The notes beneath the pieces were generated by a model. The model was given only the letters and a program-made list of their open reading frames with translations, made no database searches and was not told the DNA's origin. A stretch of DNA of 64,000 bases, taken from contig NIVC01001280.1 of the NCBI GenBank assembly GCA_002269645.1, positions 186,001 through 250,000 on the forward strand, written 5' to 3'. Numbering within the stretch: the first letter of the stretch is position 1; each line of letters opens with the position of its first letter. This stretch comes from Macrostomum lignano. Lineage: Eukaryota. Both the position numbers and the translations under genes were made by a program. This document shows positions 9,007 to 63,049 of this stretch, piece by piece.

Positions 9007-9869
9007 GGCCTCATATCAGACAGCATCAGCCGACCAGTGGTTCAGAAACGACAACACATTAGCAATGCAATAGCTAATTAATAAGGGCAAATAGAGTCCT
9101 TAGGAAGATATTTAACTTTAACATTCAAATTTCAGCCATTATAAAGCATTTAAAACAAAAAACTTGAAACATATTTCTATATACCCTGATTAGCATTCAC
9201 AACACTTATCTTAAATGACATAAATACATGTATATATAAGCTACACATTTGACTTTGACATGCCAACTCTAATGAGCTCTTGTTTGAAATAATTGGAAAT
9301 TTTTATTCAAAAAACTTTAGGCCTAGAATCATTTTGGTGACATCATATGACTAAGCCTTATGACAAGTCTTATAAACATGTGGTGAGTGTAGCATAGCTA
9401 CTTTGGGTTAACAAATGCATTAGGGAGGTTAAAATTTAAAAGAAATCCAAACAAAAATTGCAACAAATCAGTGTAGATATAATATAATGTAATAAAATAT
9501 AGTAAAACAATAACATAATAAAACAAAGCTTAAAAATCAATAATATTTATTAGACTTAGTAGTATTAATACTTATAGTTTTGTTTAAATTAAATTATAAT
9601 ATAAAAAAATTATGGTTACAACATAGTTTCAAGCATAGTAGTATTCCTATTCCAATTTTCTGCAGCCTAAAGAAAATTCCACAGATAGCTTAGCCTATTA
9701 AATATGATAAGATTTTCAACATAACTATAGAAAATTTAGTCTTTATAGCCAACTTGATCAATTTATTCAACTATTAGTATTGGCACATTTAAACTCACTT
9801 CTAGACTCTTTAGGTTCCAAGTTCTATTCTAACTAGCTCTAAAGGTCAGTTATGTTAATATTACATTAG

Positions 9870-21700: not shown

Positions 21701-21870
21701 CGCTTTATGCGCCATCTCAGTAGAGTTTGTCTCGGCTGCTTCAAGAGCGTTGACCTTGGAAATCAGAGCTTGGAGGTCTGGCTTTTTAATTTCTAAAAGC
21801 TTGGCACGGTGAAAAATAATATGTATAATATGTCCAGAAGTTGCTAGTTCGTACATCCTCCTTCCAGAAG
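18774..21870 (-). mobile_element. Degenerate Gypsy (Mag-like) LTR retrotransposon: gag remnant, RT, RNase H, integrase and probable 3' LTR (18774-19009)
   Basis: RT (ICGDYKLT, KLDMSNAFLQ, RVPFGI), RNase H (LECDASPYGLGVVL, IAFASRSLT), integrase (WARLHLDFAGP, LVSDNATQFTS, PFHPAMNGQAEKFVQ). Many frameshifts and no protease. A PPT-like AGGGGG precedes TGTCGG at 19009. No matching 5' LTR was found. Confidence 0.85.
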
Positions 21871-34835: not shown

Positions 34836-35208
34836 CTATACGATAACGTCGCTATTGAGGTCTCTTAGGAGTCGGGCCGCGAAGGGATCTCCAAACCTCA
34901 AAGCGATGAGATTCATCAACAGAAAGGCGTCCGGTGAGAAGTGGCTGAGAGTTCCACTCACGGCAGTCTGATCACATGAATCTCCCAGTAGTGCCAGCCA
35001 CAGGCGGGCGGAGCTGGCTCGCTGCCAGTACGAGAGCCGCGCGCACCACACGATAATGTTGGTTAGGAGCGCTGTCAGCAGCAGGCAGCACCAGAACCAT
35101 AGGAATATGTACACCTTTTCGTTCAGCATGTTGGCTGGCAGTACACATTGCACTGAGTACGTGTGCGACTGACCGACTCGGCGAACTGTGAAGTCGCACC
35201 AGGCTACC
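34836..35208 (-). CDS. Innexin, exon 2 (EL2, TM4, C-tail)
   Basis: The cag| acceptor gives FP-R-VAWCDF, then VQCVLPANMLNEKVYIFLWFW, the conserved innexin EL2/TM4 motifs. Stop TAG at 34836-34838. Confidence 0.92.
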
Positions 35209-41270: not shown

Positions 41271-44200
41271 AGGATCTGAGGCTGGAGACCGGCTTCGCTA
41301 GTATGATTAGAGAACAGAGCGATGACTCTCTTCGAAGGGTTCAGGGTCAACTTCATCTGGCGACTCCAGCTGGCCACCACGTCGAGGCTCCTGAAGAGAT
41401 CTGGTTGCCACTGCCACAGAGCTGTTCTGGACCCGGATGGCAAGTTCGTCAGCGCAGAGGAACGGAGCGACTCCAGGCGGGCAGACCCGCACCACGCCAT
41501 TAATGAACAGCAGAAAAAGGAACGGGGCGAGCACCGAACTTTGGGGCAGGCCCTGGCGAAGCGGCCCTGGATAGTTCAGGGCACCGTTGATGCAGGTTGA
41601 CGCCCAACGGTCGTTAAGGAAAGCGAAGCACCACCGTGTCAGCAGGAGTGGAGCGCCGAGCTCCAGCATGATCAGGATGTGCGCCTGCCGCTACACCCAG
41701 TCGTAGGCTCTGCTGTTGTCCGAGAGCAAGCAGCGTTCGGATGTGTGGCTTGGCTTGGAAGCTGTCGCTGATCGCTTAGGTCAGTCCCAGGATGGCGTCC
41801 TCGCAGGAGCGCATGCGCTGAAAGCCAGACTGTCAGCAGCTGATCTAGCCGCGGGCCTCGGCGAGGTCGTAGAGCCGACAGAAAATGATGCGCTCCAGCG
41901 TCTTGACGATGCAGGACGATGCGGCTGGCGGGTTTGTCCTGTTTGAGCGGGGGGATGATAGTGGCCTTCCTCCAAGGAGCCGGGACCACGCCAGTCAGCA
42001 GGGACTCGTTGAAGATGTGCAACAAATTCGCCCGGGCACGAAGGCCTAGCGCCTTAACGAAGCTCGGCCAGATGTCGTCAGGGCCGGCGGCGCAACGGCC
42101 GCGGAGCCGAGCAATCGCCGAAACCAGCTGCGCCTCAGAGATGGGGGACTGCGATGGGTCAGCCGCGACGGCCCTGCCGAGAAGTTTGCGGGTTTGACGG
42201 TTGGTCCGCCAGCGGAGGTGGTTGAGGAGGGGGCGTCAGGCGGGCGTCCAGACAGCTGCTTCTGGACCACAATAGGCAGTTGATCGGAGCCCAGGTCCTC
42301 CCCGACCGACCAGTCGGTGCAGTTGGCCAACCGGGGATGCACAATGGTCAGGTCCGGGGAGCTGAGCCCGCTGGTGTTGCGATTGACGTGGGTTGCCGCG
42401 CCGTCATTGCAGGTAATGTTATTGTTCAGGAGCTACTTACTCTTTAAGGGCTTCGCCTCGGGCGTCGGGTGGCTGCACAGGGTCCCACAAGAAGGGGAAT
42501 GGGCGTTAAAGTCGCCGCAGATCAGCGTCCGTCCGCCGGCTCGCAGCAGCTGCCAGGTGGGCGGGGATTTGTCAGCGGCGGCCTGCTCCCGGTGGTCCCT
42601 AGTCGGCGGGGCGTAGAGGTTGACGATGAGAAGCCCGCTGCGGCCACTGGTGTGGACTTCCGGGGCGTCGCTGGTGCCGTCGGCGGCGATGGCAAGGAGA
42701 AAGGTATCCGGTGGATAATGAGCGTAAAGAGCGCCCCCGCTGGCCTGCCCATCGGTGCGGTCCAGGCGGACGGCGGCGAAATCGTGCGGTGGTTTGAAAT
42801 TATCCTAGGGCCGGAGTTTAATTTCTTGGATGACAGCAATGTCAATATCCAGGTTGATCAGCGTGGCGCTAAGCTCGGAGGGCTTGGGCCAGATGCCGTC
42901 CGCGTTCCATTGAAGGATCCCGATTTGCTCCACAGGGCTGCTGGTCGGCCGCAGCAGGGGGGGGCGTGGAACCCACGAAACTTTTAAATTGCCAGTTCCG
43001 GGCCTCAGGGTCGTTGATTATGATCCGCTGGAGCACGCTTTGTGGGCGGCGCGACTGCAGGTAACTCAGCGAAGAGGCGCGGTGTTGGACTGAATGCATC
43101 TGTGCTAGAGGCAGCATTTGGTGGGTGGGTCGGCCGGGTGGCCGTCTGGGCGGGCCGCGGGCTGTCCGTGAAGGAGGTCCGGGTCGCGGCCGCAGGCTTG
43201 TGAGACGGGCACTGCCAGGAGGCGTCACGCCGGTAACGCGAGGACCCGCTGCAGGCGCAGTGTCAGGCCGCGCTACAGCCGGTAGATGCACAGTGGGGGT
43301 GGCGCCCCCCCCCCCTACGGAACTGGCCGCCACAGAGGGTGCAGGAGGTGCACTGGCAGCTCACAGTGGGGTTGGGCGTGAGCGGGGGGCCGTCGGTAGT
43401 CCGATGCAGGTGGCAGAACCAGATCGCAGGCGACTGAGCACGGCAGATTCCGCTGCACGAGGGTTGACGGTGGCAGGTGCTGCTGCAGTGAGGGGCGGCG
43501 CAAGCCAGACCGGGCGTTCCGGAGCGCAAAGCCCGCGAAGAGCGGTCGCAGCGGTCAGAGGCAACGACGGAGTCAGAGCCGGAGTTGCTCTCGATGTCCC
43601 CGGAGCGGCTGAGGCGCAAGCTGCAGGTGCTGACGATGGCAGGCACTGGCTGAAGTTGGGAAGCGGCACTCCACGGCCACCACCGACGAGCCGGGTCCGA
43701 GACCCGAGGCCGGCGTGGTGGCCTGTACGGGTGGCATTTGTCTCTCAATCCGGAGGATGGGTCCGGGTCGCCGTGAAGAGGCTCCTACCATGACCGCGGG
43801 CTGATGCTGTAGCTGGTGCTGTAGCTGATGCTGTAGCTGCTGCTGGCAGCGCTCTTCGGCAACGTTATTGTGTGATGCGCGCGGCTCTCGTACTCGTACT
43901 GGTAGCGATCTAGCTCTGTGGCTGGCCCTACTTGGAGATTCGTCGTGTGACCAGACTGACGCCAGCAAAACTCTCACCCTTCAAACCTGAACAGTGTAAT
44001 CCAAAACGTTCTTTTCCCCCAGAAAAGTATAATATGCATTATTTAAAACGCTATATCACTTAAATTTCGACAGAGTTCATTACCGAAAATATTTTAGCAA
44101 GTTTTGGCGGCTCACATATATTGGGCGAGGCCCAAGTTAAGAAAGCAAAATGAATCACACGCAGTCAGGCAGAGTACATGAGGCATAATCATCCCTAATC

Positions 44201-46030: not shown

Positions 46031-48396
46031 TAAACTCGTACAGCTGAGATCTCAATGGCGGCTTAGAGTAGCTGCTGCACTCTTGCAATGTCTCGTACCT
46101 GTGGGCTACATTCTGGATGCGCAGCCATCTACTTCAGCATTTCAAGGGTATGCAACAACTTCCTCTTCAACACCCATCACTTCATCATAGTAGGCTTTGC
46201 TGCGCCGGAGAATCTTATGATTTCAATGCTACAACCCGCAGCTTATCTCTTCCAGCCTGCCTTACACTGCATCAGATGCCTGCAGCTGATAACAGAATGG
46301 CATTTCATGCAAAGAGTAACGGGTTTATTTAGCGGTCTTTTACGTTTCAGATGCCATCTACGAGTACTCGTGTGATGCCCTTTTTTCGAACTAATTAGCA
46401 TTCTTCGCTCGTTCGTAAGCTCGCAGCTTAATTATTTTATTTGTCATTAAATAGCAGGTTTCTGTAACCTAAAATCGGACTGACTATTCAGGTTCTCCAC
46501 GTTCTCCATTACTAGGCACACATGCTCTCGGAAGGCAATCAATCCAAGGGGCAAGGACACGTCTTCACCAAAACTGCGATTCAGTCTATCCTTACGCGAC
46601 TAGCGTAGTGCTGGGGATGACTCGGCACTGGACGTAACACGCTGTCACCAATGTGAAGACTGGAAACGTGTTTGCCAATAGTAGCAATTTGCCGGCTTAC
46701 AAGCCGAGACGCGTATATTCATCCTATCTATTGCGACAACCCCCGAAGACAACCCTTAATATATACACGCAAACCAGGGGGACACAGCGTAAACTGTGTC
46801 CCATTACTCTCTGCTCATGACATTAAATAGTCAGCGGGTTGCTGTAACCTTCAATCGGATTGAATTTACAGGTTGTCCACGTTTAATTGGTATCTGCTTC
46901 TGCGCTATATCTCCTATATGCAAGCAGTCCGACAGCCATCGATTCCAGTTTATTTTGCCTGGAGAAAACATTACAACACGGTTTCATTCCATAGCCTAAG
47001 TTGACATTTATTGATATACGAGCCATATAATTTTATTCAAAAGGCTTTAGTTTGCTTAGAGTCACTTATTCAACTTCGATTTATTCACGCTTAGATACCC
47101 CCGGTAGCCACTGTAATCAAGCATTGACGAGTGTTCGTTGGTGGATCAAACAGCTCGCTGTGGATAAATGGTAGATGAAGCCCAACAGCCATGCAGGCTG
47201 CGCGCAAGTTCCTGACCGCATCAGCTACCACCACGCGCCCGGCCTCGGATAGCCACGGGGTGCGAAGTCAAACGCGATTTAAGCACGGGACTGGGGCACT
47301 GGGGCCGGACCATTCTATATACCGTAGCCCCAAATGCACACCAGCTCCCACACAAACAGTTCTTCACCCCCCCCCAGCCCACTGGGTCTTTCCATCACCT
47401 CCAGTTTGCCTTTCGGTCTGGCAAACTTTGAGGGTGTTTTGGGGCTTTTAGGGGGGCTGCAACAGTTTCTTTCCTTGCTTCGTTCGTGTTCCTTAAAAAG
47501 TGACCAAAAATCTGTGTTTTCACAGTACGAATCGACCCAATAAAGTGGAAACCAGGAGAGAAATACACCTGTTTTTTTAGGGTTGATATTTCACTACCCT
47601 AACAAGAATCCGAACAATCAGGGGATCATTGCCCGCCACGAGCTCGGCTGGACTGAATTTGTGAGGTAAATAAATACAGTATTTATTAAGTACAGGCTGG
47701 GGAATAACGCGCTAAAGTGTATTCTGAATTCAGCGGATACTCGATCGAGTTGAGAGATTTTTGTGTCCGACCTCCTCCCCTCCCACTCAAATATATTCAC
47801 CGATTGACGAATCCTATGGAATTCCTATAGTCTGAGTAACTTCCTGATTTCTGACGATTCTGGATCATCAGGGCCATCATACTTGTGTCGGAGGAAAAGT
47901 AGCATCGAAAAGTATTCAGCTACTCCATCCATGTATCCCTGTACCCGAAGAATGTGCTTTGATTGGCCCGAGGCTTGAGTGAAGTCACTTATTGGATCTT
48001 GATTGGGATTTTCGAATTTTCTGCGATGCACACAGCAACTGATCAAGCATAGTCAGCATGGCTACGTTTGCTGAAGAAAGAATAATGGGCATTTTGGTGG
48101 GTTTATTTGAGATACTTATTTTGGCGAGAGAACCGGAAAATGAGATGATGAGATGAAATTGTTAAACGCTTTTGTAAGATTTTGGGCATTCTTATATTTC
48201 TAAAACAGCGTTAAAAATATAGTTTACGCTCTTGTATTATTTAAAGTAGCTCTAAAGGATAGCAATAAAGAAATTCGACCGGTGTATGCTTTAATTTAAA
48301 TAGTCGATTACGACTTTACAGGTCTAGCATTGGTGTCTGAACCTGAACCTGTCCTGCTTCTGCTAAAGTAACGGGCGTCAAATCGACAGTTCTCAC

Positions 48397-49136
48397 CTGG
48401 GAAAGTGACCACTGAGCTGCCAATTCCGGCCAGAGCTGGCGTCAAGCAGCAAAGAAAAGCCGAAGTAAAGGCTGGGTAGTCCGAGGAATCCCTGCATGAG
48501 CAGCAGCTGGCACAGACAGTTGATAATGTACAATAGCTTGTAGAAAAGGTACAGGGCAGAAAATCTGCTAGGGCACTTGCCCAGCTGGCTGTAGGTCGTG
48601 CTGCGGCCCAGTAGTGGCTCGACTTGTCTGCTCAATACCGCCACCCTCTGTGCCAGCCGTCCGGAGTCGCCAAGGCCATCACCATCCCAGTCCCGTGCGG
48701 CCTTTGCAGCCGTCTGCACTGCCGAGTGAAGTGGTTTGGCAGCAACTTTCCAGAATAGATGCGGCAAATAGAATCCCATGCTTTGCAGGCTGAGTACTAT
48801 CGGGACCCACTGATAATACGGCAGCACAGCCGACCGCCGCTCGTCCTGCAGCCTCGGTGGGCCCTCCTCAACTGGGCGCGAGGCATTGAAGTACGTGCCT
48901 TCCACCCAGCACAGGTTCTCGGCGTACTCCTCCCATGACTTATCAAACTCCTTCGGCACCCAGCACTGAATTGGTGTGAATACGTATTGCCGGACCCCCA
49001 CCACGCTAGCCAGGATGACGAAAAGGCTGGGGGTCAGGCGGGAACAGAGCCAGTCGAGGTCGTCTTCTGCTTTTAGCTGACCGCTAGCACCTAAGCCGAG
49101 AAGCCGCACCAAGGTGAGCAGAACTTCCGCTCCCAT
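48397..49136 (-). CDS. Innexin, exon 1 (N-terminus, TM1, EL1, TM2, loop, TM3); spliced product about 370 aa
   Basis: EDDLDWLCSRLT, PIQCWVP, YAENLCWV, the YYQWVP signature, GFYLPHLFWK, YLFYKLLYIIN and SGHFPR. An AG|GTGAGA phase-2 donor matches exon 2 (740+373=1113 nt). Confidence 0.95.
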
Positions 49137-50767
49137 GATAATACTGAGGTTCTCAGAACAGAAGTCGCAGAAAACAGTAATGACTGTATGTTTGGTAGCG
49201 TCAGTTCGGATCTCTCCGGATCCTTTCTCTATACCTCAGACAGCCCAGCAACTGATTGGTCTCGTGGTGGATCAACGGCGATTCCGATTCGCTGCGAGCT
49301 ACTGTCTACCCCAATGTTGTTTGGATGTGAATTTTCTGGTACTGGCAACTACTGGCGCTTCAAAAAATTGACCAATTCAGTGTGATTACTATTTAACTTG
49401 GGCTGAATTTCCTTGTTCAAAAAGGTTTGCAACGTTATTACCCTAGTAATAATATCGACGAATGTTACAAGTGCATAAACGTAAATATTGTAGAAAGGAA
49501 ATCAAAATCTATTTGCGGGGAGAATTACTCTAAAATCGAACGAGAAGTGTTTTGCAATCTTCTGGGGCCGCTCACCACTTATGACGCTACCTATCTTCTT
49601 CGCCTGCACATTTATCATCGCTACCGATCACCAGTTGTTTTTGCGCTTAGCCTCTGTTGACTGAGAGACCCTTTGTGAACATGTCTAGCCAGCTGACGAT
49701 TTGAGAATGGGTTTCGTTTTAGCATGCATTTTAACTGTGCATTTCTATTCGGCTTAAAACCGAAGCCTTTTTGTCGTCCACACAACTCTCACACCGACCA
49801 CATGGCTTTGTCTGTAACTTGGAAAGTCAATATATGAATAAAAGGGGTATTGCTCACTTTTTAAAGCAGTGATCAGACACATGTAGACGTGGGTCTTTGA
49901 GGACCCACGCCATCTCATCGTTGCCAACCAAGTAAGTGCGTTGCCCTTCCTGTCTTCTGTCAATCGGTTGCCAGAGGGAGTTGAAGATCCGAGTGTCCTG
50001 ACGCCGACCGAAGTAGACATATCAATACTGTATTGCTTCCTCCGTCCGCCAGCCAGTGCGTCCCGACGCCTCGCTGAAGGCGGCTGGCCTACACCACCGC
50101 GTCCCGCGCGTAGGAAGGCTGCGTGGGTGCGTCCTGACGCTCTGGACTTTGGGAGATTGCACGCACTCGCGCCTGGTCGCAGGCCGGCAAGAACCCGTAC
50201 TGTACTGAATATTTTAGCCTGTAGTACCTACCGTACTGCCTAGACCGGGCTGCAGGGATAGAACAACATGAGAGTAGCATAGAACACAGATCCCATATAC
50301 ACTATATGGGTCACTTGCAGAAAAACCTGTCCCTTTTTCATTGTTCGCTAAGTTTACTTTTTCGTCAAGTAACTTTCGGTTCCAAGGAAAGTAAGATAAC
50401 TTCCTGCACTTGTTCCGGTACCGGTACTTTAAAAAGTAGCTAAAGTAGCTAAAGTAAATAATCATAGCTTTCTTTTACTTCCGGTACCGGTTCTTTCTAA
50501 TTTAAAAGAACCACGAATTAGAAAGTGCTTAAGCTTTTCTTTGTGAAAAAACAAATAACGTGCGTTGGTCTAGAGTTATGCATACAATTATTCCTTAAAT
50601 AAAAATGCTGCATGATTTTTAAATATTATCGCATTTAGGTGAATTAACAAAACACGTTTTGAAAACAGGGACTAGCAGAATAACAGGACGCTACACTCAT
50701 GATCCTTGGAAAAGCTTTTTGAAAGCCGATTTTCAAATGTTGATTATGACTCTTTAGAAGTATGTAT

Positions 50768-51593
50768 TGTCACGTTATTGGCGTAGCGGCCAGCTATGCG
50801 GTGACCCTTAAAAGGGCCGTTTTAGTCCCAAAATAGTTGAAGTCAATTCTTGTAAAGCGGATTTTGTAGCGGAGCACTTGGCGATAAAGGCAGGAACTGC
50901 CGTAGTTGTCTTTATTGTTAATATCAGTATTAAGTTTGGTTGTTACTGGCAATAAACAGACTATAGCTTTCTGGGCACTGGCGGCTGCAGCAATGGGTTG
51001 AATATAATTTGGATATGAAGTCAAGTGGCAGGCGAATGACACAATGGCGACGTGACGTGAGCAGTGGCTATGAGCACCGTGAAGGCAGTGAAACGTAGTG
51101 GTGAGTAGGCGTCGGTCGTGGCGTGAAACAGTCAAGTAAGTGTGTGAGCAGGCTGGCCCAGACAGAAGGGCCGCGGTGAGAAATAAGGAGGCTCGAGGCA
51201 GCCAGACAAACAGATAAGACAGCTAAGAGGCCGCAGGGAAGGAAACAAGGAACAGGCGGGGAGAGACGAAAAAGCGTGAGGGGTGCCCGCCGCCAGGCGG
51301 GGGTTTAATAAAAGAGCGCAGAGGGGGGTAGCGCGAGCACGAGTGATTTCATTGGCTGGCGAGAGAACTTAAAATTATCGATCGTGCCAATTTTATACGG
51401 TTGCGAGAGAGGATAGCAAAATATACAATGAATTATAAATTGCCACAAAATCGTTGGGCACTACTACAAGTAAACGTCGCAATAAACGAATGGAAAAGTT
51501 TAGTTGAAACGGTGAAACTGAAGGGTTGAATGACTATGGAGAACAGCAGTCCAACGGCCCTTTTCGGGACCACCTTAAACTGACAACGTCACA
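50768..51593 (-). repeat. 3' LTR (826 bp)
   Basis: Matches 60215-61041 except for an A/G at 50923/60370 and one G in a G-run (differences found by eye). Confidence 0.97.
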
Positions 51594-51607
51594 CCCGCCT
51601 CCCTTCC
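51594..51607 (-). promoter_or_regulatory. Polypurine tract
   Basis: GGAAGGGAGGCGGG on the - strand, directly abutting the 3' LTR. Confidence 0.85.
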
Positions 51608-52086
51608 GAAAAAGGATAGGGTCGCGCAAAAAGAAAACCAACACGCGGGTCGACGGCAAGAAAAACACAACGTGACCGCAGTTTATGAAATTATAGCAGA
51701 GTGAATTACAGTGGGGTTGAGTCAGTTTGTATGAGCATATGATTACCGGACAAAATTACAAAGTTCCAAAGGCTACAGACGATTACGAGAGCAGAACATT
51801 ACAGGGCAGTAGAACACGGTGAGCACGAGCAATACAACATGGTGGTGTTACAAAAACATTACAAAATACAACAATGGTTACGGAAAGTAGTGCACGACGG
51901 AGCGCGCGGCGCGTGCGAACACAAAAACGACAAAGGACGCGCAGAAGTGATACGATGGATGAGGCAAACACAGAACAAGGATGACAAGGTGGATGAGGCA
52001 AAGGATGCAGAGCAGAGGCACGGAACAGAGGCACAGTCCGGACAACTGCGGGCAAACGACGCCAAGCGTCAAGGGCGGCGGGACAC

Positions 52087-52376
52087 GGCGCGGCGCGCCA
52101 AGGCGGAAGGGAGAACCGGCGCAAGAGCGCCCAAGGCGGAGACACGGCGCAGCGCGCCAAGGCAGAGACGGCGCAATGCGCCAGGCGGAGAACGGCGCAG
52201 CGCGCCAAGGCAAAGACGGCGCAGCGCGCCAGGCAGGAACGGCGCCACGCGCCAAGGCAGGAAACGGCGCAAGGGCGCCACGCGGGAACGGCGCCACGCG
52301 CCAAACAGAGGACGGCGCCACGCGCCAGGCAGAGGGTGGCGCCACGCGCCAGAGGCAGAGGATGGCGCTACGCGCC
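52087..52376. repeat. Minisatellite of about 24 bp, about 12 units, each containing a GGCGC-N3/4-GCGCC palindrome
   Basis: Units start at 52087, 52117, 52146, 52170, 52194, 52218, 52241, 52266, 52290, 52314, 52338 and 52364. Confidence 0.9.
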
Positions 52377-53550
52377 AAAGGCAGAGAGAGCGTGCGTGCG
52401 GTGTGTGTGTGTGTAGTGCTTACTTTTACCCCACAAGAATTATATATATCTAGCTACATTATGAAATTTGCGAAATTTAATGATCAATTGCAGTTGATTT
52501 TTGAAGTAAACGACGCTGACCTGATCAGCCAGCTGCGCAGCGTTACGCTGCACTCGTCAATGAGCTGACCAGGGTCGCGCTGCACTGAGCTAGCTATGTT
52601 CCTATATGCATTTTTTCGAGTTTTCAATGGTTGCTTTTTCAGTTTTTATTTTCCTTTTTGAGTTATTTATGCGTTTCACTCGTCGCCAGTAGGTATGTTT
52701 TAATTACTAACCGTATATTGCACATTATATGGTTTCGGGGTATTACTATTAGCGTCAGAGATGACGCACTTATTCATTTCATCGACTTTGGCAACACCGA
52801 ACGGGTGCCATTGCTATCAATTATTTTAATCATTTTTGCCATTGCTATAATGTTTATACGTGCCCTAGTGTATTTTATCGATTATGGCAACGCCGATGCA
52901 GGCAGAGGACGTCTACAGAATATTTTGACAACTAATATATTTATAGTATTCATCTCGTAATCATTTTTCGACCAATATATGCATTATTTTATGCCATATT
53001 TATGCATTAATTTTTTAGTTTACTTTTGAATATTTGAGCTAAGGCTAATGTCTTATCTACTATTTGTTTCTAGCGCCGTAGTGTATTCTATAGACTACGG
53101 CAACGCCGACCAGGTGCAGTCGGAGTTGGGTGCTGCGATATTATATATATTCTTGCGTTAGAACAATATAGTATTTATACTGTCGGCATATTATGCTAAT
53201 TCTGCTAGTGTTTTATTTTTATTTTATTTATTTTAGCTAGCTATATAAATTATCAAATTGCAATGTCGCCGCAGTTTATCCCCTTGACTACGGTGGTTGG
53301 CTGTTGGCTGGTACAGCTGTGGAAGTTGTGCACACTAGTATCTGGCAGTGAGTAACAGCTGTGGCTTGTGTTTTGTGGCTTGCGGCTGGCAGATGCCGCA
53401 GGGACCTGTGACCAACAGGTGCCACAGGAGGTAGTTTAACGCCTTGCCCGGGGCGTGAGCTTGCGGTCTACAGGTGCCGCAGAGACCTGTGGCTGACAGG
53501 TGCCACAGGAGGTAGTTTTACGCCTTGCCCGGGGCGTGAAAAACTGGCGG

Positions 53551-56500
53551 TTAGTGTCTGCTTCCCCACTGCTGGAGCAGGTCGGACACTTGACAGGTCC
53601 GGTACCTGACAGGCGGGCGGATGGGGCGTCCGTACCTGGATCTGGGTACGTCAGCCGGGGCTGGTGGCTCAGCTGCTTGCGCAGCGACTGGATTCGCAGC
53701 AATCTCAGGTGGTTCTAATTGCTCGGAGGAAGGGTCCCCCAAGGAAGCCGTGTACAGCGACTCTGAGCTGTCTTGGCTGTGGCTGGTGTCAGTGTCTGTG
53801 CTGTCAGTGTCAGTGTCTGGTTGTGGCTGTCCCTCAATAGCTACAGCATCGCCAGCTTCGGCGAATGGTTGGCCTTCTCCCGCTTCAGCTCCCGCCCCCT
53901 CCTCAAAGGCGCCTGAAGCTGGCGGTGGTGGATTTGGCCCTGGCGCTCTGCGTGGGCTCTCTGGCCGGGCAGAGGAAGGCTGGGGAATGGTGACGAGGCT
54001 AAGCTCGCTCGCGGGTCCGCTGGGCGGGTTCACACTAGGCGCTGGAGACCTGGCATGGGTGGCCTCACCATACCGGTCAACTACGTCTTGGTAAGTGGGC
54101 TGTCTGATGCACGGTTTGAGGCGGTCAATGTTGTAAATGTTATGGCGCGGATTTGGCACCCGATCTGCTGGGTTTAGGAGACCATACTCGGGGACTAAAC
54201 GGTAAGTCCGCTCGGAGCAGCGCTGCACTACTCGGTATGGCCCCAACCACACAGCGGGTTCTATGCCCTTGTGGTTCGGGTTCAAGACCCAGACTAACTC
54301 TCCCTCGTGGAACTCAGCGCGGAGGGCGCGGCGGTCGTAATACCTTTTCTGCCTCTCCTGGGCTTTACCCCTAGTGCGGCGGGCTAGGGCAGAGGTTTCG
54401 ACTAGCGTGCGGTGCAACTGGTGGGCGTACCTCTCCGGCTGGTAGTGTTCATTTGGCGGTGGATTGTGACAGAGGTCGAGCGGTAGTTCGAACTCACGCC
54501 CGAAGAAAAGTTTGGCTGGAGTAAATCCGGTGGATTCGGCGACTGTGGCACGGATTGACAGGGCGGCCAGGCGGCTGGCAAGGGGCCAGTCGCATTGTCT
54601 CTCAAGACAGATGGCTCTAATCTGGGCTTTCACCGTCTGGATCATCCTCTCAGCTTTACCGTTAGCCTGAGGGCGACGGGCTGTGATCCGACCCATGTCA
54701 ATCTGTAGGAGCCTAGTTAATTCTATCATGGTACTATTGATGAAGGCAGTTCCGTTATCAGACACCAGCTGCTCCATCACCCCATACCTGGCAACCCATT
54801 CAGTCAGGATGGTTGTGGCAGTGGTCTCTGCGCTGACGTCGGGAACAGGGACTACTTCAACAAACCCGGTGAACCTGTCGATCATAACCAGCAGGTACTT
54901 GTACCCGTCACACTCTTCGAACGGGCCTGCGTGGTCCACGTGGACAACCTGGTTCGGGTAGCCGGACAGTTCTGGTTGCATAGGGGCCTTGAGCTTACGC
55001 TTTGACTTCTTAGTCTTAGCGCAAACGGTGCATTCGGCCAGGACCCCCTTGACTATAGTATCTAAGTCGGAAATAACGAAGCGCGCCTTCAGGGCGGCCA
55101 TCGTCTTGGTGATACCGCAATGGTTCAACTGGCCATGATACTGAAGGACCAGATGACCGACGTCTGCGGTCTCAGGCACCACCAGGCGCCTGTTGGCAGT
55201 CTTGGCTTTGGAGGATTTGGCTAAGTACAATAGACCCTCGACTACTTCAAGGTCATTGAATTGAGCCCAGAGTGCGCGCATTTCCCGGCTACAACCCTGC
55301 AGTTCGGCCTTGGACAATGGCTCAGTCTTACACTGGACACTGGCGATTAGGCGCGCCATGTCAACACAGGAGTCCTGGGCATTCTGGGCCCAGATGAGCT
55401 CAGGTGGCACTTGGGATTCGGTGTCAGGTTGACGGGATTCAGTCTCTGGGCTAGGAACAGCACCGCTAGCAGTAGCGCGGACATTCGGCGTTGGTTCAGC
55501 CGGGGCATCTGTGTCAGTCTGACACGCTACGCTAATGCCTATGGTCTGGACGCACACCTGACGCAGTTCTCTAGAGGGGGGCGTACGCCGGTGCTTTGGG
55601 TCTTGGTCCAGGAATTTCCCTTTAAATTCCGGAATCTGGCTGCACGTCGGGCAGTCAAAGTGATCGGCTCTGAATTTTGGCAGTCTACTAAGAGCGTCAG
55701 CAGGCACGTGGTCAACGCCTGGACGGTACTGGACTGTGAAATCGTATTCGGCTATTCGTTCTAGAGTGGACTGCTGGACCTTCAGCGGGTACAGTTCAAT
55801 GGTGGCAAGCCATTGGGCCAGCATACCAGTGGCATGCTTCTTAGAATGCAGCCATTTGAGCGCGGCCGCGTCCACCCGGACAGTGAAAGGCTTGTCTAAT
55901 AGATAAGGACGGAAATGCTCGAGCATCAGAACGAGCCCTAGCAACTCCCTCATGGTGGCGCAGTAGTTTCTCTGGCTACTGTTGAATTTTTTGGATGCGT
56001 AAGCTATAACTTGCTCTTGGCCATCTGGCCCGAGCTGGTACAGCACACCCCCAGTGCCGTCAAGCGAGCTATCGCAGTCCAAAATAAATTCGCGCCCTTT
56101 GGCAGAGAGGTCTGGATACGCCAGAATCGGTGGTGAACAGAGGCTATGTTTGAGTTCTTGGAAAGCCCGTTCATGATGCGGTTGCCATAGAAACGGAGCA
56201 TCCTTTTTGGCTAAGGCATACAAAGGCGTGGCGATGATTGAGAATCGCGGCACGAATTTCCGGTAATAATTCGCAAATCCCAAGAATGATAGAAGCTGTT
56301 TCTTAGAAAGCGGTTTAGGCCAGTCTTGGACAGCCTGAGTCTTCGCTGGGTCAGCCTCAATGCCCCGGCTAGACACAACGAACCCCAGGAATGCGACCTT
56401 GTCCTTAAACAGCTCACACTTAGACGGCTTAATTTTGAGACCGGCTTTTCTAAGCTGCCAGAGGACCAGCGCGAGATGCGCGATCATTTGGTCGTTGTTG

Positions 56501-59316
56501 ACAGCCTTAATGATAATGTCGTCTAAATAGATGAGGCTGACCTTCATCAGGAGAGGTCTAAACACCTTGTGCATCAGTTTCGCGAAATTGGCAGGTGCCG
56601 TCTTGATCCCGAATGGTACTACCTTCCAGCGGAAGGTGCCTTGGGGGCAGGCAAAGGCGGTGTAATCTCTAGCCTCCTCTTTGATCCCTACCTGCCAGTA
56701 CGCGGAGGTCAGGTCAAGGCTAGAGAATACAGTGGCCCCGGCAAGGCTGTCAAAAGATTCTTCTATGAGTGGCAGAGGGAAGCTACACGGCTTGATGAGC
56801 TTATTGACGGCCCTATAGTCTATGCAAAGGCGTTGAGTGCCGTCCTTCTTCTTGACCAGAACGATAGGCGACACCCAGTCAGAGTCGCACTCCTCAATGA
56901 CCCCCTGTTCGAGCATCTGCGCTATGTTCTGGTCTAAGAATTCTTTTTGTGCTGGCGTGGTGCGCCTGTATGGTTGCGCAACAGGCTTGGCCTTAGGATC
57001 TATTAACTCTATGCCCATCTCGTGTAAATTGGTGTGGCCTAAATCTGCGTTTGATCTAGAAATTTGGCTATTGAAGTAGTTGAGCAGTTTCAAAACGGTG
57101 GCGAGTTGGCCCCTAGACAATTTGGCTTGGTCTAGTTGGAACTGCGTTGTCAGCCATTTGGCTAACTCCCTACTAGGCGGCGGCAGCTTACTGAGTTGGC
57201 TGGTGAGGTTAGCTACATTGTCCAGGCTAAAGTCAGACTCCTTCAGGGTCGTCTGAGCTATGACCTCATGACTATCTAATTCCTGGAATGAGGCAATTTC
57301 TTGCCCCCTAGTTATCTGAATAGGCTGTTCCCCACTGTTGAGCACGCGCACTAGTATGTGGTTAGTATCGCTAACTGAGTCTAGAGTCTTGGCTACCAAC
57401 TGTTCGGTCTCTGGTCCGAGGATCCGGGACATGACTATACCGGAGGTGTACGGCGAAGAGTCGAGGACACGACTGGGGATCAAGGTTTCCGAGTGCGGGG
57501 GCAATTCTACGGTGCCGGCGGCCATCACTCGTCGGAGTTGGAAAATCCCCTTGTCCCCCTCAATGACTGGTACCGACACCCCTGCTACTAAAGCTCGGCC
57601 AGAGTTGAAGTCTAGCAGCATCTCGAAGCTGCGCAGGAAATCCATGCCTAACAGGGCTTCCGTGGTACAGTAAGCAGTGACTAGGAATACATGTTGTTTA
57701 GTCGTATTACCTAAGTTGATTTCGCAGCGTAGCGACCCTAGGATGTCTACCTGAGAGCCGCCGAAGGCGGTGGCACGCTGCTTATTGGCACTAGGCGTGA
57801 ATATGTTATTGACGGGGTCAGCTGCGACCAGTTTGGCTTTCACGTCAGCACCCATGATGCTGGCATTGGCGCCTGAGTCTAGACAGGCCAGAACTTTAGA
57901 GTCTCCTACTCCTAGCTGCACGAAATAGCTAGACTCAAAGGTGTCAGCTGTGTACCCCCCTTGTCGGCATTGTGGATCACTGTCCCCTGGCTGAGGTTGC
58001 ACATTACAGGCCTTGTCGTGCTGGCGCCCGGGGTCGACCTGGCGCTGGAATTTCACCCTAGTCCCCCTAAGGCGGTGCTGCTCGACTAGGCTACGCAGGC
58101 TGGGAGACAGTTGGCTAATGTGAACGAACAATTTCTCTGGCAGGTGCTCAGATTGGATGAACCCGTAATTCTGAGACCATGTGGCAATGGTTCCTAGTTC
58201 AGTCGTGACTTTTCCACGGCTGGGCTGCTGATTTTGGCTCCCCCGGGGCTGCTTTGGCGACTGTGGCCTCGGCGAGGGCGATGGACAGTCAGCGATCAGG
58301 TGATCGGTCTGGCCGCATCGATGGCAAGCCCGCGGAGGGCGAGGAGCTGGCCTAGGTTGTCTATAGGTTTGGCTAACTTGTGGTGGGCCCCCAGTGGGCT
58401 CTGTGCGAGCGGGCCCCTGATTGGTAGTGACAGGCGGAGTGGTCTGGCTTAATCTATTGGCTTGGTCGGTCACCATCTTCTCAAGCTCAGCGACCCTCTG
58501 TTCTAACGCTTTCTTCTCAGCGTCAGGTTCTATGGCACGAACCTTGGCTATAGTAGGAGGCACGTTCAGAAGCTGGCGGACCCCGACAAGATCTTTGGCC
58601 TTCTGCATCAGCTCTTCTGCAGAGGTGGCACTGTCGGTTTCCTGATCCCATAAGAGGAGCTTTTCGGCGAGGTCCTTATCCCTCAGCCCATGGCAGAATC
58701 TGGCCTTGAGTAGGGGCTTCGCTTCAGCGAGCGAGAGACCCGCTAGTCTAGAATAGGAGACCAGTCTGTCGAAGAAATCAGACATCTGCTCATTATGAGA
58801 TTGGGCGGCAGCAACTAATTCTACGTAGGCCTTGTCCTTCTTCTTGGCATCGGTGTACCTTTCCCTGAGCAGCCGAAGCGCAGATTCGAAAGGCAACTGG
58901 TCACACCGGTAATTAAGATATACCTCTTGGCATTCGGCTGACAGCAAAGATACGAGAATGGCGGACTTCTGGTCCTCAGGAACGCGGCAAGTGGCTAGAT
59001 ACGAAGTAAGCTGAGCTTCCCACGTATCAAAGTTCATCTTCGGCTGATAAGCGATTGGAGGGCGAAGGCGTATGTCTGGCTTCGCAGGCGGCGAGGAATT
59101 TGGCGCTAATGGCGAGGAAACAGCGAGACGCTCTTCGAGCATCCGGTGAAGAGAGGCTAAGGTTTGAGTCAACAAGAGTTGCTCACTAGGAGCTGGCGCG
59201 GCGGCAGCAGCTGCGCCTGCTGGCTGCTCGCCGGCATCGACTGCGTCCTGATCTGGCACGGCGGCATCTCCGTCAGCCAATGACGCTGCGGCATGGTTGT
59301 CCCCGTTGTCGGACAT
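53551..59316 (-). CDS. Gag-Pol polyprotein: capsid, CCHC knuckle, cold-shock domain, aspartic protease, RT, RNase H, integrase with GPY/F and an acidic/Pro-rich tail
   Basis: CHRCGQTDHLIADC (aa331-344); CSD aa372-441; LACLDSGA; WVSPIVLVKKKDGTQRLCIDYR; IYLDDIII; LDCDSS; HHCC integrase finger; VHVDHAGP, LVSDNG, PQANGKAERM; WLGPYRV. Confidence 0.95.
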   Translation of the reverse strand: MSDNGDNHAAASLADGDAAVPDQDAVDAGEQPAGAAAAAAPAPSEQLLLTQTLASLHRMLEERLAVSSPLAPNSSPPAKPDIRLRPPIAYQPKMNFDTWEAQLTSYLATCRVPEDQKSAILVSLLSAECQEVYLNYRCDQLPFESALRLLRERYTDAKKKDKAYVELVAAAQSHNEQMSDFFDRLVSYSRLAGLSLAEAKPLLKARFCHGLRDKDLAEKLLLWDQETDSATSAEELMQKAKDLVGVRQLLNVPPTIAKVRAIEPDAEKKALEQRVAELEKMVTDQANRLSQTTPPVTTNQGPARTEPTGGPPQVSQTYRQPRPAPRPPRACHRCGQTDHLIADCPSPSPRPQSPKQPRGSQNQQPSRGKVTTELGTIATWSQNYGFIQSEHLPEKLFVHISQLSPSLRSLVEQHRLRGTRVKFQRQVDPGRQHDKACNVQPQPGDSDPQCRQGGYTADTFESSYFVQLGVGDSKVLACLDSGANASIMGADVKAKLVAADPVNNIFTPSANKQRATAFGGSQVDILGSLRCEINLGNTTKQHVFLVTAYCTTEALLGMDFLRSFEMLLDFNSGRALVAGVSVPVIEGDKGIFQLRRVMAAGTVELPPHSETLIPSRVLDSSPYTSGIVMSRILGPETEQLVAKTLDSVSDTNHILVRVLNSGEQPIQITRGQEIASFQELDSHEVIAQTTLKESDFSLDNVANLTSQLSKLPPPSRELAKWLTTQFQLDQAKLSRGQLATVLKLLNYFNSQISRSNADLGHTNLHEMGIELIDPKAKPVAQPYRRTTPAQKEFLDQNIAQMLEQGVIEECDSDWVSPIVLVKKKDGTQRLCIDYRAVNKLIKPCSFPLPLIEESFDSLAGATVFSSLDLTSAYWQVGIKEEARDYTAFACPQGTFRWKVVPFGIKTAPANFAKLMHKVFRPLLMKVSLIYLDDIIIKAVNNDQMIAHLALVLWQLRKAGLKIKPSKCELFKDKVAFLGFVVSSRGIEADPAKTQAVQDWPKPLSKKQLLSFLGFANYYRKFVPRFSIIATPLYALAKKDAPFLWQPHHERAFQELKHSLCSPPILAYPDLSAKGREFILDCDSSLDGTGGVLYQLGPDGQEQVIAYASKKFNSSQRNYCATMRELLGLVLMLEHFRPYLLDKPFTVRVDAAALKWLHSKKHATGMLAQWLATIELYPLKVQQSTLERIAEYDFTVQYRPGVDHVPADALSRLPKFRADHFDCPTCSQIPEFKGKFLDQDPKHRRTPPSRELRQVCVQTIGISVACQTDTDAPAEPTPNVRATASGAVPSPETESRQPDTESQVPPELIWAQNAQDSCVDMARLIASVQCKTEPLSKAELQGCSREMRALWAQFNDLEVVEGLLYLAKSSKAKTANRRLVVPETADVGHLVLQYHGQLNHCGITKTMAALKARFVISDLDTIVKGVLAECTVCAKTKKSKRKLKAPMQPELSGYPNQVVHVDHAGPFEECDGYKYLLVMIDRFTGFVEVVPVPDVSAETTATTILTEWVARYGVMEQLVSDNGTAFINSTMIELTRLLQIDMGRITARRPQANGKAERMIQTVKAQIRAICLERQCDWPLASRLAALSIRATVAESTGFTPAKLFFGREFELPLDLCHNPPPNEHYQPERYAHQLHRTLVETSALARRTRGKAQERQKRYYDRRALRAEFHEGELVWVLNPNHKGIEPAVWLGPYRVVQRCSERTYRLVPEYGLLNPADRVPNPRHNIYNIDRLKPCIRQPTYQDVVDRYGEATHARSPAPSVNPPSGPASELSLVTIPQPSSARPESPRRAPGPNPPPPASGAFEEGAGAEAGEGQPFAEAGDAVAIEGQPQPDTDTDSTDTDTSHSQDSSESLYTASLGDPSSEQLEPPEIAANPVAAQAAEPPAPADVPRSRYGRPIRPPVRYRTCQVSDLLQQWGSRH

Positions 59317-59706
59317 TGTGTAAGGTTGAGTGAGACAAATGAATCAAGCGTGAACGAAAATAAGGCTCCAGAGAAAACGAATTGAGGTTGATGACGCGAG
59401 AGAGACGAGAGAGATTGCGTCCTACTAACAAAATACGTGCCTGACAGGGGCAAACCGCAAAAAGCCTATAATAGGGGAGAGTCCTATCACGCAAACCACC
59501 CAGACTAACTGTCAGGCAATAGTCCCTACAAACAATCAGCGCACAGCGTAACCTGGCGTGGCTTGGCACACGCAGCGGAGCTATCTTGGCAGAGCGTAAG
59601 CTCGAGCTCAACGCAGTTGACAGCGCGCGTTGCTCAGGGCGACGACCAGCGACGACTCGCGGCGACGAGCGAAGACCGGCCGAGCAGTCAGGACCCCTGG
59701 GCCTGA

Positions 59707-59861
59707 CGTGGCACAGGCTCTCGTAGCCTTGCGGACCGAACCTCAGGCGTGGCACAGGCTCTCGCAGCCTTGCGGACCGAACCTCAGGCGTGGCACAGGC
59801 TCTCGTAGCCTTGCGGACCGAACCTCAGGCGTGGCACAGGCTCTCGCAGCCTTGCGGACCG
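59707..59861. repeat. 41-bp tandem repeat, about 4 copies, in the 5' leader of the Gypsy element
   Basis: cgtggcacaggctctcg(t/c)agccttgcggaccgaacctcagg at 59707, 59748, 59789 and 59830. Confidence 0.9.
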
Positions 59862-60013
59862 TCAGGCAGAAACGTGGCAGGCCGGCACTCAGTCACGAGC
59901 CGGCAGAGCTGAGCAGAATCTTGCTGACGCTTGGTTGCGAGCTGGCAGGGCTGAGCAGAAGTCTTGATGGCGCTGATTACGAGCTGGCAGGGCTGAGCAG
60001 AAGTCTTGATGGC

Positions 60014-60200
60014 ACTGACTTAGTTGCGAGCCGGCAGTGCTGAGTAGGAGTCTCGGTGGTGCTGACTTAGTTGCGAGCCGGCAGTGCTGAGTAGGAGTCT
60101 CGGTGGTGCTGACTTAGTTGCGAGCCGGCAGTGCTGAGTAGGAGTCTCGGTGGTGCTGACTTAGTTGCGAGCCGGCAGTGCTGAGTAGGAGTCTCGGTGG
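60014..60200. repeat. 47-bp tandem repeat, 4 copies, overlapping the PBS
   Basis: gacttagttgcgagccggcagtgctgagtaggagtctcggtggtgct at 60017, 60064, 60111 and 60158. Confidence 0.95.
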
Positions 60201-60208
60201 GACCTCCA
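60189..60208 (-). promoter_or_regulatory. Primer-binding site complementary to the tRNA-Gln 3' end
   Basis: The - strand reads TGGAGGTCCCACCGAGACTC, starting 6 nt after the 5' LTR. It is complementary to ...UCUCGGUGGGACCU-CCA of eukaryotic tRNA-Gln (tRNA sequence recalled from memory). Confidence 0.85.
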
Positions 60209-60214
60209 AAATTA

Positions 60215-61041
60215 TGTCACGTTATTGGCGTAGCGGCCAGCTATGCGGTGACCCTTAAAAGGGCCGTTTTAGTCCCAAAATAGTTGAAGTCAATTCTTGT
60301 AAAGCGGATTTTGTAGCGGAGCACTTGGCGATAAAGGCAGGAACTGCCGTAGTTGTCTTTATTGTTAATGTCAGTATTAAGTTTGGTTGTTACTGGCAAT
60401 AAACAGACTATAGCTTTCTGGGCACTGGCGGCTGCAGCAATGGGTTGAATATAATTTGGATATGAAGTCAAGTGGCAGGCGAATGACACAATGGCGACGT
60501 GACGTGAGCAGTGGCTATGAGCACCGTGAAGGCAGTGAAACGTAGTGGTGAGTAGGCGTCGGTCGTGGCGTGAAACAGTCAAGTAAGTGTGTGAGCAGGC
60601 TGGCCCAGACAGAAGGGCCGCGGTGAGAAATAAGGAGGCTCGAGGCAGCCAGACAAACAGATAAGACAGCTAAGAGGCCGCAGGGAAGGAAACAAGGAAC
60701 AGGCGGGGAGAGACGAAAAAGCGTGAGGGGTGCCCGCCGCCAGGCGGGGGGTTTAATAAAAGAGCGCAGAGGGGGGTAGCGCGAGCACGAGTGATTTCAT
60801 TGGCTGGCGAGAGAACTTAAAATTATCGATCGTGCCAATTTTATACGGTTGCGAGAGAGGATAGCAAAATATACAATGAATTATAAATTGCCACAAAATC
60901 GTTGGGCACTACTACAAGTAAACGTCGCAATAAACGAATGGAAAAGTTTAGTTGAAACGGTGAAACTGAAGGGTTGAATGACTATGGAGAACAGCAGTCC
61001 AACGGCCCTTTTCGGGACCACCTTAAACTGACAACGTCACA
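60215..61041 (-). repeat. 5' LTR (827 bp)
   Basis: tgtcacg...cgtcaca followed by the gtat TSD. Confidence 0.97.
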
Positions 61042-63049
61042 GTATGCTCGTATGGACATAACTTTTGGCTTATAGTTGTGTCACAATGTGTAGAATACTT
61101 CAGCCAGCTTTCAGTTTGTGTGGGTCGTTTTTCGTTGCTCTACTGTGTTGAGTTTTACAGCATCTATACTATTACAGTATAAGTATACTTTTATACTGCT
61201 GACTCATTTAGAATCTATGATTATCTTCTGGAAGTCTTGGAAATGCCAGGTAACAACTAATAAAAAGGATACCAGGACAACAAACTGCTGCAATTTTTCG
61301 AAAAAGTGCACAATAGAGAAATTTAATTTACCCAAACGAGTTAAAAGTCATCCTGCACAGACGAAAATCGAAATGGAGAAATAATCCTTTAGAACATTTT
61401 TTCACGAATGCATCTGGATAGCGTCCTGATATACTACTGCTGGTGCAGTGGTCCTGTTAGAATATTTGCAAGAACTCGGTAAACAACGATTTTTATAGTT
61501 TTTAGCGTGTCTTGTTGCTGAATGAGTTGGGTTAAACGAAACAATTTATAAGCAAAAGAAACTAAAGCACAAATGGAGAATACTTTTCAATCCTTAAAGA
61601 AATTTTAATTGCACACCATTTTGGGGCCGCAAAGTTTAGTTTACAGAGCCTCAAAGCCTAAAAAAGATTTCTCTGTGACGAAGTTGTAGGCCTACTTTTC
61701 TTTTGCTGACGTTGATGAGGTGTCTAGCGGTCTATCAGGATTTACAGTACATGTAGAGAATAAGTAGTAATGAACTAAGCGAATTACAAGGAGCTGTCGA
61801 AATACTGTCGAACTATTCAATATATTTATCTGTTAAAAGTATTAGAGCCAGTACAAAGCCAAGAGCGACGAGCGACAAACCAGACTACTCCTACCACTAC
61901 CAGACAACCAGCTTGGGGCGAAATTCAAAACGTTTTTATAGTAATTTGAAATTTGAGTATAAAGATTTAAACAAAGGAGTGTAAACTTAATCTACTTAAC
62001 GTGTCAAACAATACGTGCAGATGTACAATTAAATAGAATAATTAAATACCAATCACAACAACGGCAAACGACCTAAAAAAGCTCACACCGTCACATCTCA
62101 ATTAAATATTTTTTGTATTTCACTGAAGTTGTCATTCTGTTAACTTTTTAAAGTAATTACCAAAATTTTTTTATTTGTTTCTATGATGCTTAAAATTTGC
62201 TTTAACTTAAAAGTAAAAGCCGCACGATCCTATCATATCTTTTCAACTTTGTATAGTTATATTTTGGTGAAAGCTTTGCACTATTGAGAAATATTTAGTA
62301 ATGGTGGCAGTTTAGCACCAAATTTTAATTTTCAAGCACCGGAAGTATCGGGTTTATCAAAAATTAACTTCCGTTACCTAACTTCCGTTACCGTCCAGTC
62401 AGTCCAAAAAATCGGAAAAGGCCGCTCTTAAAAAAGTAACCTCTGGTACTAAAAGCGTCGGAAGTGCTGGAACTTTGCCCAACACTGCCTTTTCACTGTC
62501 TATGGTTGGAAACACGAGCAGCAGAGATCGGAAGGCGGCAGGAGAAAAGTTAAATGCTTTTAGCCAATACGTAAAGTAAGCCAGTCCATCAACATTTTCT
62601 CGATTACAGTAATGCTGCCACAGAGAGCATGGGTAACAAACACGGTGCTCGTAATTTTTTGCACACGTCCGCAAGCAAGAATGCCGTGAAAGAATCTGTC
62701 TATGTCGTTATTGTCACCTTTTGTTGTTGCCGGATTTCTAGTCAATTCTTCTGTCTAGTGCACGTTGGAAGAGCAGTAAAGATAATCATCCAATCGTCTA
62801 TATGGTAATCGGAAAGGACAGTAAAGGCGACTAACCTAACTGTCATAAATTAATTCTTTATGGATTTTGAGCTTTTTTTTCGAAATAGAAAAAGGAGCTA
62901 TTATTCGCTAAGAAAAAATTCCTAGCTGAGAAATATGTGGACTCTCCACGGAGAAGTTGGTTGGCTTTTGTCACACGAGAGTCAAGCAATCGCTTTGTTC
63001 TGGAGATTAACAATTTGGATGCGTCGTCCAATACCAAAGTGCTGCTTGA

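Follow-up and report, generated by a model that had tools for sequence, protein, structure and literature searches.

The closest described parallels to the locus presented here are telomeric non-LTR retrotransposons of flies (citations refer to the accessible parts of the papers named). In Drosophila melanogaster, the element TART-A carries in its UTR a piece of a host silencing gene, nxf2, for which piRNA-guided repression has been proposed, with piRNA and degradome evidence and a fast-evolving target (PMC7785250). In Zaprionus and D. auraria/triauraria, fragments of piwi and aub have been captured at about 90% identity and amplified (up to eight fragments), with new regions taken up over time; gene conversion has been proposed and the target evolves faster (PMC13534243). 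The locus we describe shares these features in part.

The flatworm Macrostomum lignano is rich in germline-type Tudor and Piwi genes and its LTR elements have been active recently, a combination read as a possible arms race. Its T3 (extended) Tudor genes, a type almost entirely piRNA-linked, are strongly expanded and number 63 (PMC12147562). A survey of its Ty3/Gypsy (Ty3/Mdg4) elements describes the same PR-RT-RH-IN order, LTRs and recent activity found here, and the accessible part of its text mentions no captured or antisense host pieces (neither 'antisense' nor 'piRNA' occurs in it) (PMC12801592).

The element and its surroundings

We analysed a window of 64,000 nucleotides (contig NIVC01001280.1, forward-strand positions 186,001 to 250,000), to which all coordinates refer unless another contig is named. 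Protein matches identify the host as Macrostomum lignano. The window holds an intact LTR retrotransposon on the minus strand (50768–61041), and its LTR pair with TG..CA ends, GTAT duplication, polypurine tract and order of protease, RT, RNase H and integrase make it a Ty3/Gypsy element (Table 1). With so few differences between the LTRs, the insertion is recent. The single gag-pol frame encodes, in this order, a PNMA-like gag, a CCHC knuckle, a cold-shock domain, protease, RT, RNase H and integrase.

Table 1. Features of the element and of the array in its 3' UTR.
Feature	Position	Strand	Remarks
Target-site duplication, left	50764..50767	.	GTAT at both flanks
3' LTR	50768..51593	-	826 nt, TG..CA ends; 2 differences from 5' LTR
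Polypurine tract	51594..51625	-	Adjoins 3' LTR
Block Z	52461..52554	+	Opening ~95 nt of a host C2H2 zinc-finger gene (C94, C2623, C337), copied from the ATG onwards; 77% to C94, 70% to C337
Decayed upstream part of block A	52727..52759	+	IWFRGITISVR, codon-level likeness to host LYRGMCIRAGQ; judged by eye
Block A core	52760..52809	+	45/50, 44/50 and 45/50 against Tudor gene A copies C3307, C1210 and C2379
Block B, older or converted copy	52860..52900	+	Closest to host Tudor gene B at 35/51, followed by the next domain at 30/51
Block B, close copy	53069..53109	+	37/41 against the last Tudor exon seen of gene B (C197, C606, C2574)
Fourth DYG motif	53262..53300	+	Without host source; overlaps stop of short minus-strand frame behind pol
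gag-pol	53551..59343	-	One intact frame of 1930 aa between stops, with the first Met at 59316
5' LTR	60215..61041	-	827 nt
Target-site duplication, right	61042..61045	.

The cold-shock domain (PF00313, 57994–58194, minus strand) sits in the same reading frame, with the CCHC knuckle before it and the protease after it, and scores 28.7 bits, above the cut-off. Used as a query it gave 113 matches from 114 candidates, at 38–100% identity and mostly at loci of this and related Gypsy families, so the domain marks the clade; our literature search found no description of a cold-shock domain in such elements. The 3' region of the element, used as a DNA query, gave at least 74 matches (40 of 55 candidates scored). 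An earlier note on this DNA had placed the motifs discussed below where errantiviruses carry env. No long sense frame occurs in 52400–53550 and no env-like ORF is present, and with a flatworm as host the likeness to errantiviruses reduces to one of position. Two minus-strand frames of 191–194 aa at 51783–52453 overlie GC-rich repeats.

Elsewhere in the window, we found an uninterrupted frame of 1587 codons for a BIG/Sec7 ARF exchange factor (4252–9015), a PRP39-type HAT-repeat exon (1679–2359) and an innexin exon (48393–49235), all on the minus strand, the Gypsy element lying about 1.5 kb upstream of the last. RT fragments of other retroelements occur at 12918–13589 and 21087–21704 (both minus). 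A 58-nt inverted repeat, 86% complementary (35027–35084 and 43837–43894), surrounds a GC-rich stretch of 8.7 kb that contains another RT fragment (38648–39211).

Host sequences in the 3' UTR

The host-derived blocks of the 3' UTR all have the same orientation, antisense to gag-pol and to the element RNA. The four Tudor-like motifs that the earlier note had recognised lie at its stated positions on the plus strand and, as it described, are separated by AT-rich spacers (50% GC in the blocks; 25% GC and 48% T in the spacers). To find their sources, we compared the array as DNA with 70 Tudor loci (421,796 bases) gathered from the genome, for which 150 of 167 candidates were scored. Block A matched one gene (gene A, 45/50, E 1.5e-11) and the close copy of block B another (gene B, 37/41, E 3.1e-8). 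In a fixed 51-nt window set against 50 host DYG/DFG motifs, block A agreed with gene A at 43 positions and with the next domain at 31, and the close block B agreed with gene B at 39 and with the next domain at 32. Over the matched blocks themselves, identity is about 90% for block A (88–90%) and the close block B (90%), and lower for block Z (70–77%) and the older B block. Both matches lie in frame within host Tudor domains and a third one, described below, sits at the start of a spliced gene present in three copies, which shows that the array is captured host DNA and that the direction was from host to element. The earlier reading of captured Tudor-gene fragments is thereby confirmed for blocks A and B, with two specific sources.

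Gene A is present in three copies (C3307, C1210, C2379); its named relatives are TDRD1 (twice), TDRD6 and TDRD15 (four of four matches), and a search of the PDB gave no sequence match. Gene B encodes an RRM and several Tudor domains, the matched exon being closest to Drosophila Tudor among solved structures. Both genes hold PF00567 domains of the extended-Tudor type, which they share with TDRD1, TDRD6 and Tudor; this is a likeness of domain type. From domain type we infer that both genes may act in the piRNA pathway. In contigs from two runs, loose ends of gene B sequence coincide to the nucleotide with 53069 and 53109. An independent host origin of the older B block was also considered and dropped, since a degenerate 29-mer matched element copies in 24 of 24 cases. 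In the host, the gene B target is a perfect 13-bp hairpin (L076:3319–3346), which in the element (53075–53102) is reduced to a stem of 8 bp whose inner part is imperfect.

The third source, missed in the earlier note, is a gene with three host copies (C94, C2623, C337) that encodes a C2H2 finger and a helical domain. The transcript evidence comes from assembled, unstranded contigs of four runs, none of them recorded as RNA; run X1 shows splicing and the leader, and depth was not used for ranking. In the X1 contigs, exon 1 of the zinc-finger gene is joined to exon 2, and the M. lignano spliced leader (sequence from PMC5173321) is joined just before the ATG. Block Z begins to match at this same ATG and therefore takes in the opening nucleotides of the mature mRNA without the upstream repeats; its identity ranges from 66 to 85% across element copies. 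The protein falls in no Pfam family, has no relative among long proteins and matches only sequences of the same species; its fold gave Atlas scores below 0.8 or none, a single-sequence model a pLDDT of 44, and fold searches only generic helical bundles. The name of the gene, sought for an expression class, is absent from the readable supplements of PMC5730564 and PMC5816591. It is a candidate for an unrecognised restriction factor. A degenerate copy of its exon exists elsewhere (L157, G000:C255, about 361600–362050), with another gene piece (L166) some 7 kb off. The text beside this pseudogene looks like a SAMHD1-type HD domain but has no Pfam support; a SAMHD1-like reading of the zinc-finger gene itself, prompted by this likeness, was rejected for that reason and because no such exon was seen behind the gene by eye.

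Two of the pieces previously assigned to Tudor did not trace to a Tudor gene. The upstream 'helix' AQRYAALVNELTRV is a frameshifted portion of the block copied from the zinc-finger gene. The fourth motif, AAVYPLDYG, reached at best 25/51 among the 50 host motifs, all 26 of its 26 protein matches are element copies, and its GACTAC overlaps the stop codon of the short minus-strand frame after pol. Chance motifs in low-complexity DNA can be set aside for the array in view of the specific host-gene matches (45/50, 37/41 and the 50-motif comparison).

What the element holds of a Tudor domain amounts to 13–17 codons of the barrel. Against Pfam TUDOR, the first block scored 21.7 bits (E 2.2e-4) in its stop-free frame, under the 23-bit cut-off, and 25 bits (E 2.2e-5) with stops read as X, the match spanning only profile positions 68–97 of 121. 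The upstream part of block A contains stops and frameshifts in other element copies, and 30 of 53 B-type blocks have S, L or C at the aromatic position before xDYG, a position to which SMN numbering would assign a role in the cage. With its partial barrel, flanking stops and frameshifts that vary among copies, and loss of this position, the array is not a Tudor-domain protein gene.

These observations bear on the suggestion that a spliced antisense transcript could encode a Tudor-like decoy peptide binding the methyl-arginines of PIWI proteins. A 123-codon open frame does join blocks A and B in the subfamily of this element, all 33 matched copies retain an AG inside block A, 20 of 22 retain AG..GT around the close B block, and the low pN/pS reported below would also agree with a peptide. 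The donor GT after block A, on the other hand, is present in only 15 of 33 copies and is lacking after the older B block, so that the AG/GT bounds to which the earlier note drew attention are kept only in part. In other subfamilies the blocks are bordered by stops and frameshifts, no block has an intact first half of the barrel, the unstranded contigs of the four runs contain no splice joint inside the array, and 52635–53468 is crossed unspliced in three of the four. With these results and the loss of the aromatic position, we regard a decoy peptide as very unlikely.

Retention and divergence of blocks and targets

The blocks are conserved among family members, at least one being carried by 49 of 52 element loci, while their number and order vary. 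Among the orders are Z-A-B (18 loci) and Z-A-B-B-P (12, including the element at 50768–61041); Z-B-A-P and Z-Z-B-A-P also occur, as do A/B chimeras, and some loci have duplicated blocks. The array is missing from three of the 52 loci. None of 19 loci of related families and more diverged copies has Tudor or zinc-finger blocks, and a second check of related families found them only at loci of the present family (L170, L178) or in the pseudogene. Some contigs skip gag-pol (joint 53460/59361, three of four runs) and the array (52208/53395, also three of four), with equal joint depth in X1 and X4. Since the ends of the skipped parts are not GT..AG, these contigs look like a short non-autonomous derivative of the element that lacks the array. 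L172 and L176 likewise have no array.

The bias towards synonymous differences that the earlier note had seen between motifs extends to the family: counting distinct changes, pN/pS is 0.20 for the 17 variants of block A as well as for the 19 of block B. Pairwise divergence, however, reaches 0.22–0.34 at third positions of the blocks, against 0.08–0.12 in the spacers (19 selected copies) and 0.035 at third positions of pol (13 copies). Among columns, 14 of 29 third positions of Tudor blocks are variable versus 58 of 271 in spacers (p 0.003), and the extra conservation of positions 1–2 (7/60 versus the same spacers, p 0.11) is not significant; as the element copies are related, these p values overstate independence. 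Silent coding sites should not exceed non-coding spacers, which is a further argument against a decoy, since a protein is then not the best account and diverged coding templates would fit. The excess of third-position variation suggests re-copying from diverged host coding versions. About half of the minor alleles are common to A and B blocks (9/17 and 10/18), so part of the synonymous excess is accounted for by conversion within the array, with no need of selection.

The variants of the elements can also be compared with those of the host. All columns that differ between two zinc-finger copies also vary among elements (12/12 and 10/10, p 0.005 and 0.0015), in a test whose anchoring pattern fixes some columns and favours the coincidence, and element subfamilies differ in which zinc-finger copy is closest to them. 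For block A, 9 of 18 minor alleles are found in gene A copies or the dead duplicate exon; the shared columns give p 0.008, or p 0.37 without the duplicate, in a comparison based on two of the three gene A copies. Dead duplicates of the start of the targeted exon lie 3–4 kb downstream of each gene A copy (L189, L190, L191) and keep alleles common to some element blocks.

Such sharing weighs against a reading in which the host is the one to benefit: piRNAs derived from its own mRNAs, antisense to the element, would mark the element, and the blocks would vary to escape. The geometry would permit this, thousands of M. lignano transcripts give rise to piRNAs (PMC4604429), and block third positions are hypervariable. 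Deletion of the array would nevertheless be a simple escape, yet nearly all loci keep blocks and some have them duplicated, and element variants carry host-version alleles instead of avoiding them; we therefore give this reading very little credence.

On the host side, where target-region divergence refers to copies within one genome only, gene A presents the clearest concentration of changes. Within the matched window, 8 of 50 positions are variable among its copies, amino acids of the Tudor core being altered, as against 18 of 580 elsewhere (p 5e-4), whereas the exon's dead duplicates, three on these contigs, do not differ from one another across the 50 nt; the second Tudor motif of the exon is variable at 2 of 52. 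Gene B showed no change in its window between C197 and C606, two of its three copies. The zinc-finger copies C337 and C94 differ at 24 of 99 positions in the captured part, then at 34 of 133 (nt 106–250), 18 of 191 and 1 of 345 (3' end of the exon), as compared with 10/288 in exon 2, 2/213 in exon 3 and 10/810 in the neighbouring gene. This divergence is at the captured end and is wider than most captures (one element copy reaches nt 150), and an old allele or a recombinant would explain it no less well than escape site by site.

A different reading is that the blocks are passengers, captured by template switching and refreshed by conversion with no repression of the host, or that they help the element in some other way (granules reached via pairing with Tudor mRNA, or looking like self). 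The non-significant conservation of positions 1–2, the existence of array-less copies and the unchanged window of gene B would all agree with this, and the authors of the fly study likewise suspect a second benefit of capture (PMC13534243). Passengers would not be expected to comprise three captures in one orientation, two of them on the same motif of two among many Tudor genes, nor would they account for the divergence of gene A being concentrated on the window and absent in the dead duplicates. Moreover, the cores of about 50 nt alone stay close to the host while the adjoining captured part decays, and the 19 loci of related families and diverged copies are without such blocks. Both versions of this reading are, in our judgement, unlikely.

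A possible route to repression and its relation to known systems

The account we incline to, as somewhat the more probable one, is that the 3' UTR array of 40–100 nt pieces, antisense and from three host genes, is a source of sense piRNAs that would cut the mRNAs of those genes and so weaken silencing. In M. lignano, the piRNAs of Macpiwi1 are mainly transposon-antisense, and sense piRNAs form ping-pong pairs with them (PMC4604429). Antisense piRNAs cutting the element RNA would start ping-pong and give trailing piRNAs from the element sense strand, and those derived from the blocks would pair with the Tudor A, Tudor B and zinc-finger mRNAs, which a PIWI protein would then cut. An attack on the element would in this way cost the host components of its defence, a feedback trap from which it could escape by changing the target window, the element following by re-copying or converting its blocks. 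The piRNAs antisense to the element, the main class bound by Macpiwi1, would have the same sense as the host mRNA and leave it untouched, and the model therefore depends on sense piRNAs.

In favour of sense piRNAs are the three independent captures in the same orientation, two of which hit a common Tudor motif. The specific source genes, the retention of the blocks, their excess of third-position variation and the local divergence of two of the three targets point the same way, and the proposal in the earlier note that the element could seed piRNAs against a silencing factor agrees with all of this indirect evidence. The most similar 30-mers differ at 3 positions from gene A copy C3307 and from gene B, at 4 from zinc-finger copy C337 and at 5 from C1210 and C94. 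Against the piRNA reading, every 30-mer differs at 5 positions or more from C1210, a copy of gene A, and from C94, a copy of the zinc-finger gene, and block Z is only 70–77% identical here; fly captures at about 79–82% identity gave almost no host-gene piRNAs (PMC13534243). The unchanged gene B window, the three loci without array and the array-skipping contigs also speak against it. G:U-tolerated mismatches are not in excess for gene A (4–6 versus 4–6) and number 7 versus 3 for gene B.

The nearest alternative is that long element RNA pairs directly with the host mRNAs, either blocking translation, since the start codon lies within block Z, or feeding Dicer. For Z, A and close B, the duplexes have energies of −66 to −105 kcal/mol where shuffled sequences give −33 to −59; these values and the beginning of block Z at the ATG of a trans-spliced mRNA are in keeping with such pairing, and a mismatch of 20–25% would presumably be better tolerated by long duplexes than by single guides. 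The duplexes are short, though, with a mismatch every 5–10 nt, and the fold of the array itself is not unusual (z −0.98), so that direct pairing seems improbable. A hairpin precursor was rejected on the same value, the array folding no better than shuffles.

Taking the sense-piRNA model further, the array might be a renewable, CRISPR-like hit list, re-copied as hosts escape and providing guides only upon piRNA attack; we offer this as a tentative extension that is rather doubtful as yet. If it were true, the array would be a record of past host alleles and would name a restriction factor, the zinc-finger gene. The array itself marks two of some 63 germline-type Tudor genes and one family-less gene as candidates for those mattering most in silencing the element. 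The idea of an arms race is testable, given that published small-RNA libraries, RNAi and transgenesis exist for M. lignano.

The locus touches on the question of whether transposons fight the piRNA pathway, for which the RNA-based cases that we found are Drosophila telomeric non-LTR elements. A literature search, with subscription papers mostly outside it, turned up neither a transposon that has captured Tudor sequence nor a description of such an array. Here an ordinary, recently active LTR element of a distant phylum has a multi-gene antisense array, with signs of change on both sides. TART-A is a telomeric non-LTR element with one captured gene, and the piRNAs that hit nxf2 are TART-antisense (PMC7785250), whereas the flatworm element is an LTR element with blocks of 40–100 nt from three genes, all antisense to its RNA, so that sense piRNAs or the RNA itself would have to act. 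The piwi/aub captures also belong to telomeric non-LTR elements, and their targets are PIWI genes and one F-box gene, 'tudor' being absent from the accessible text (PMC13534243). In the flatworm, by contrast, 49 queries against 30 Piwi-domain loci found no Piwi-domain capture (two matches looked like unrelated repeats), and the targets, next to the two Tudor genes, include a lineage-restricted zinc-finger gene.
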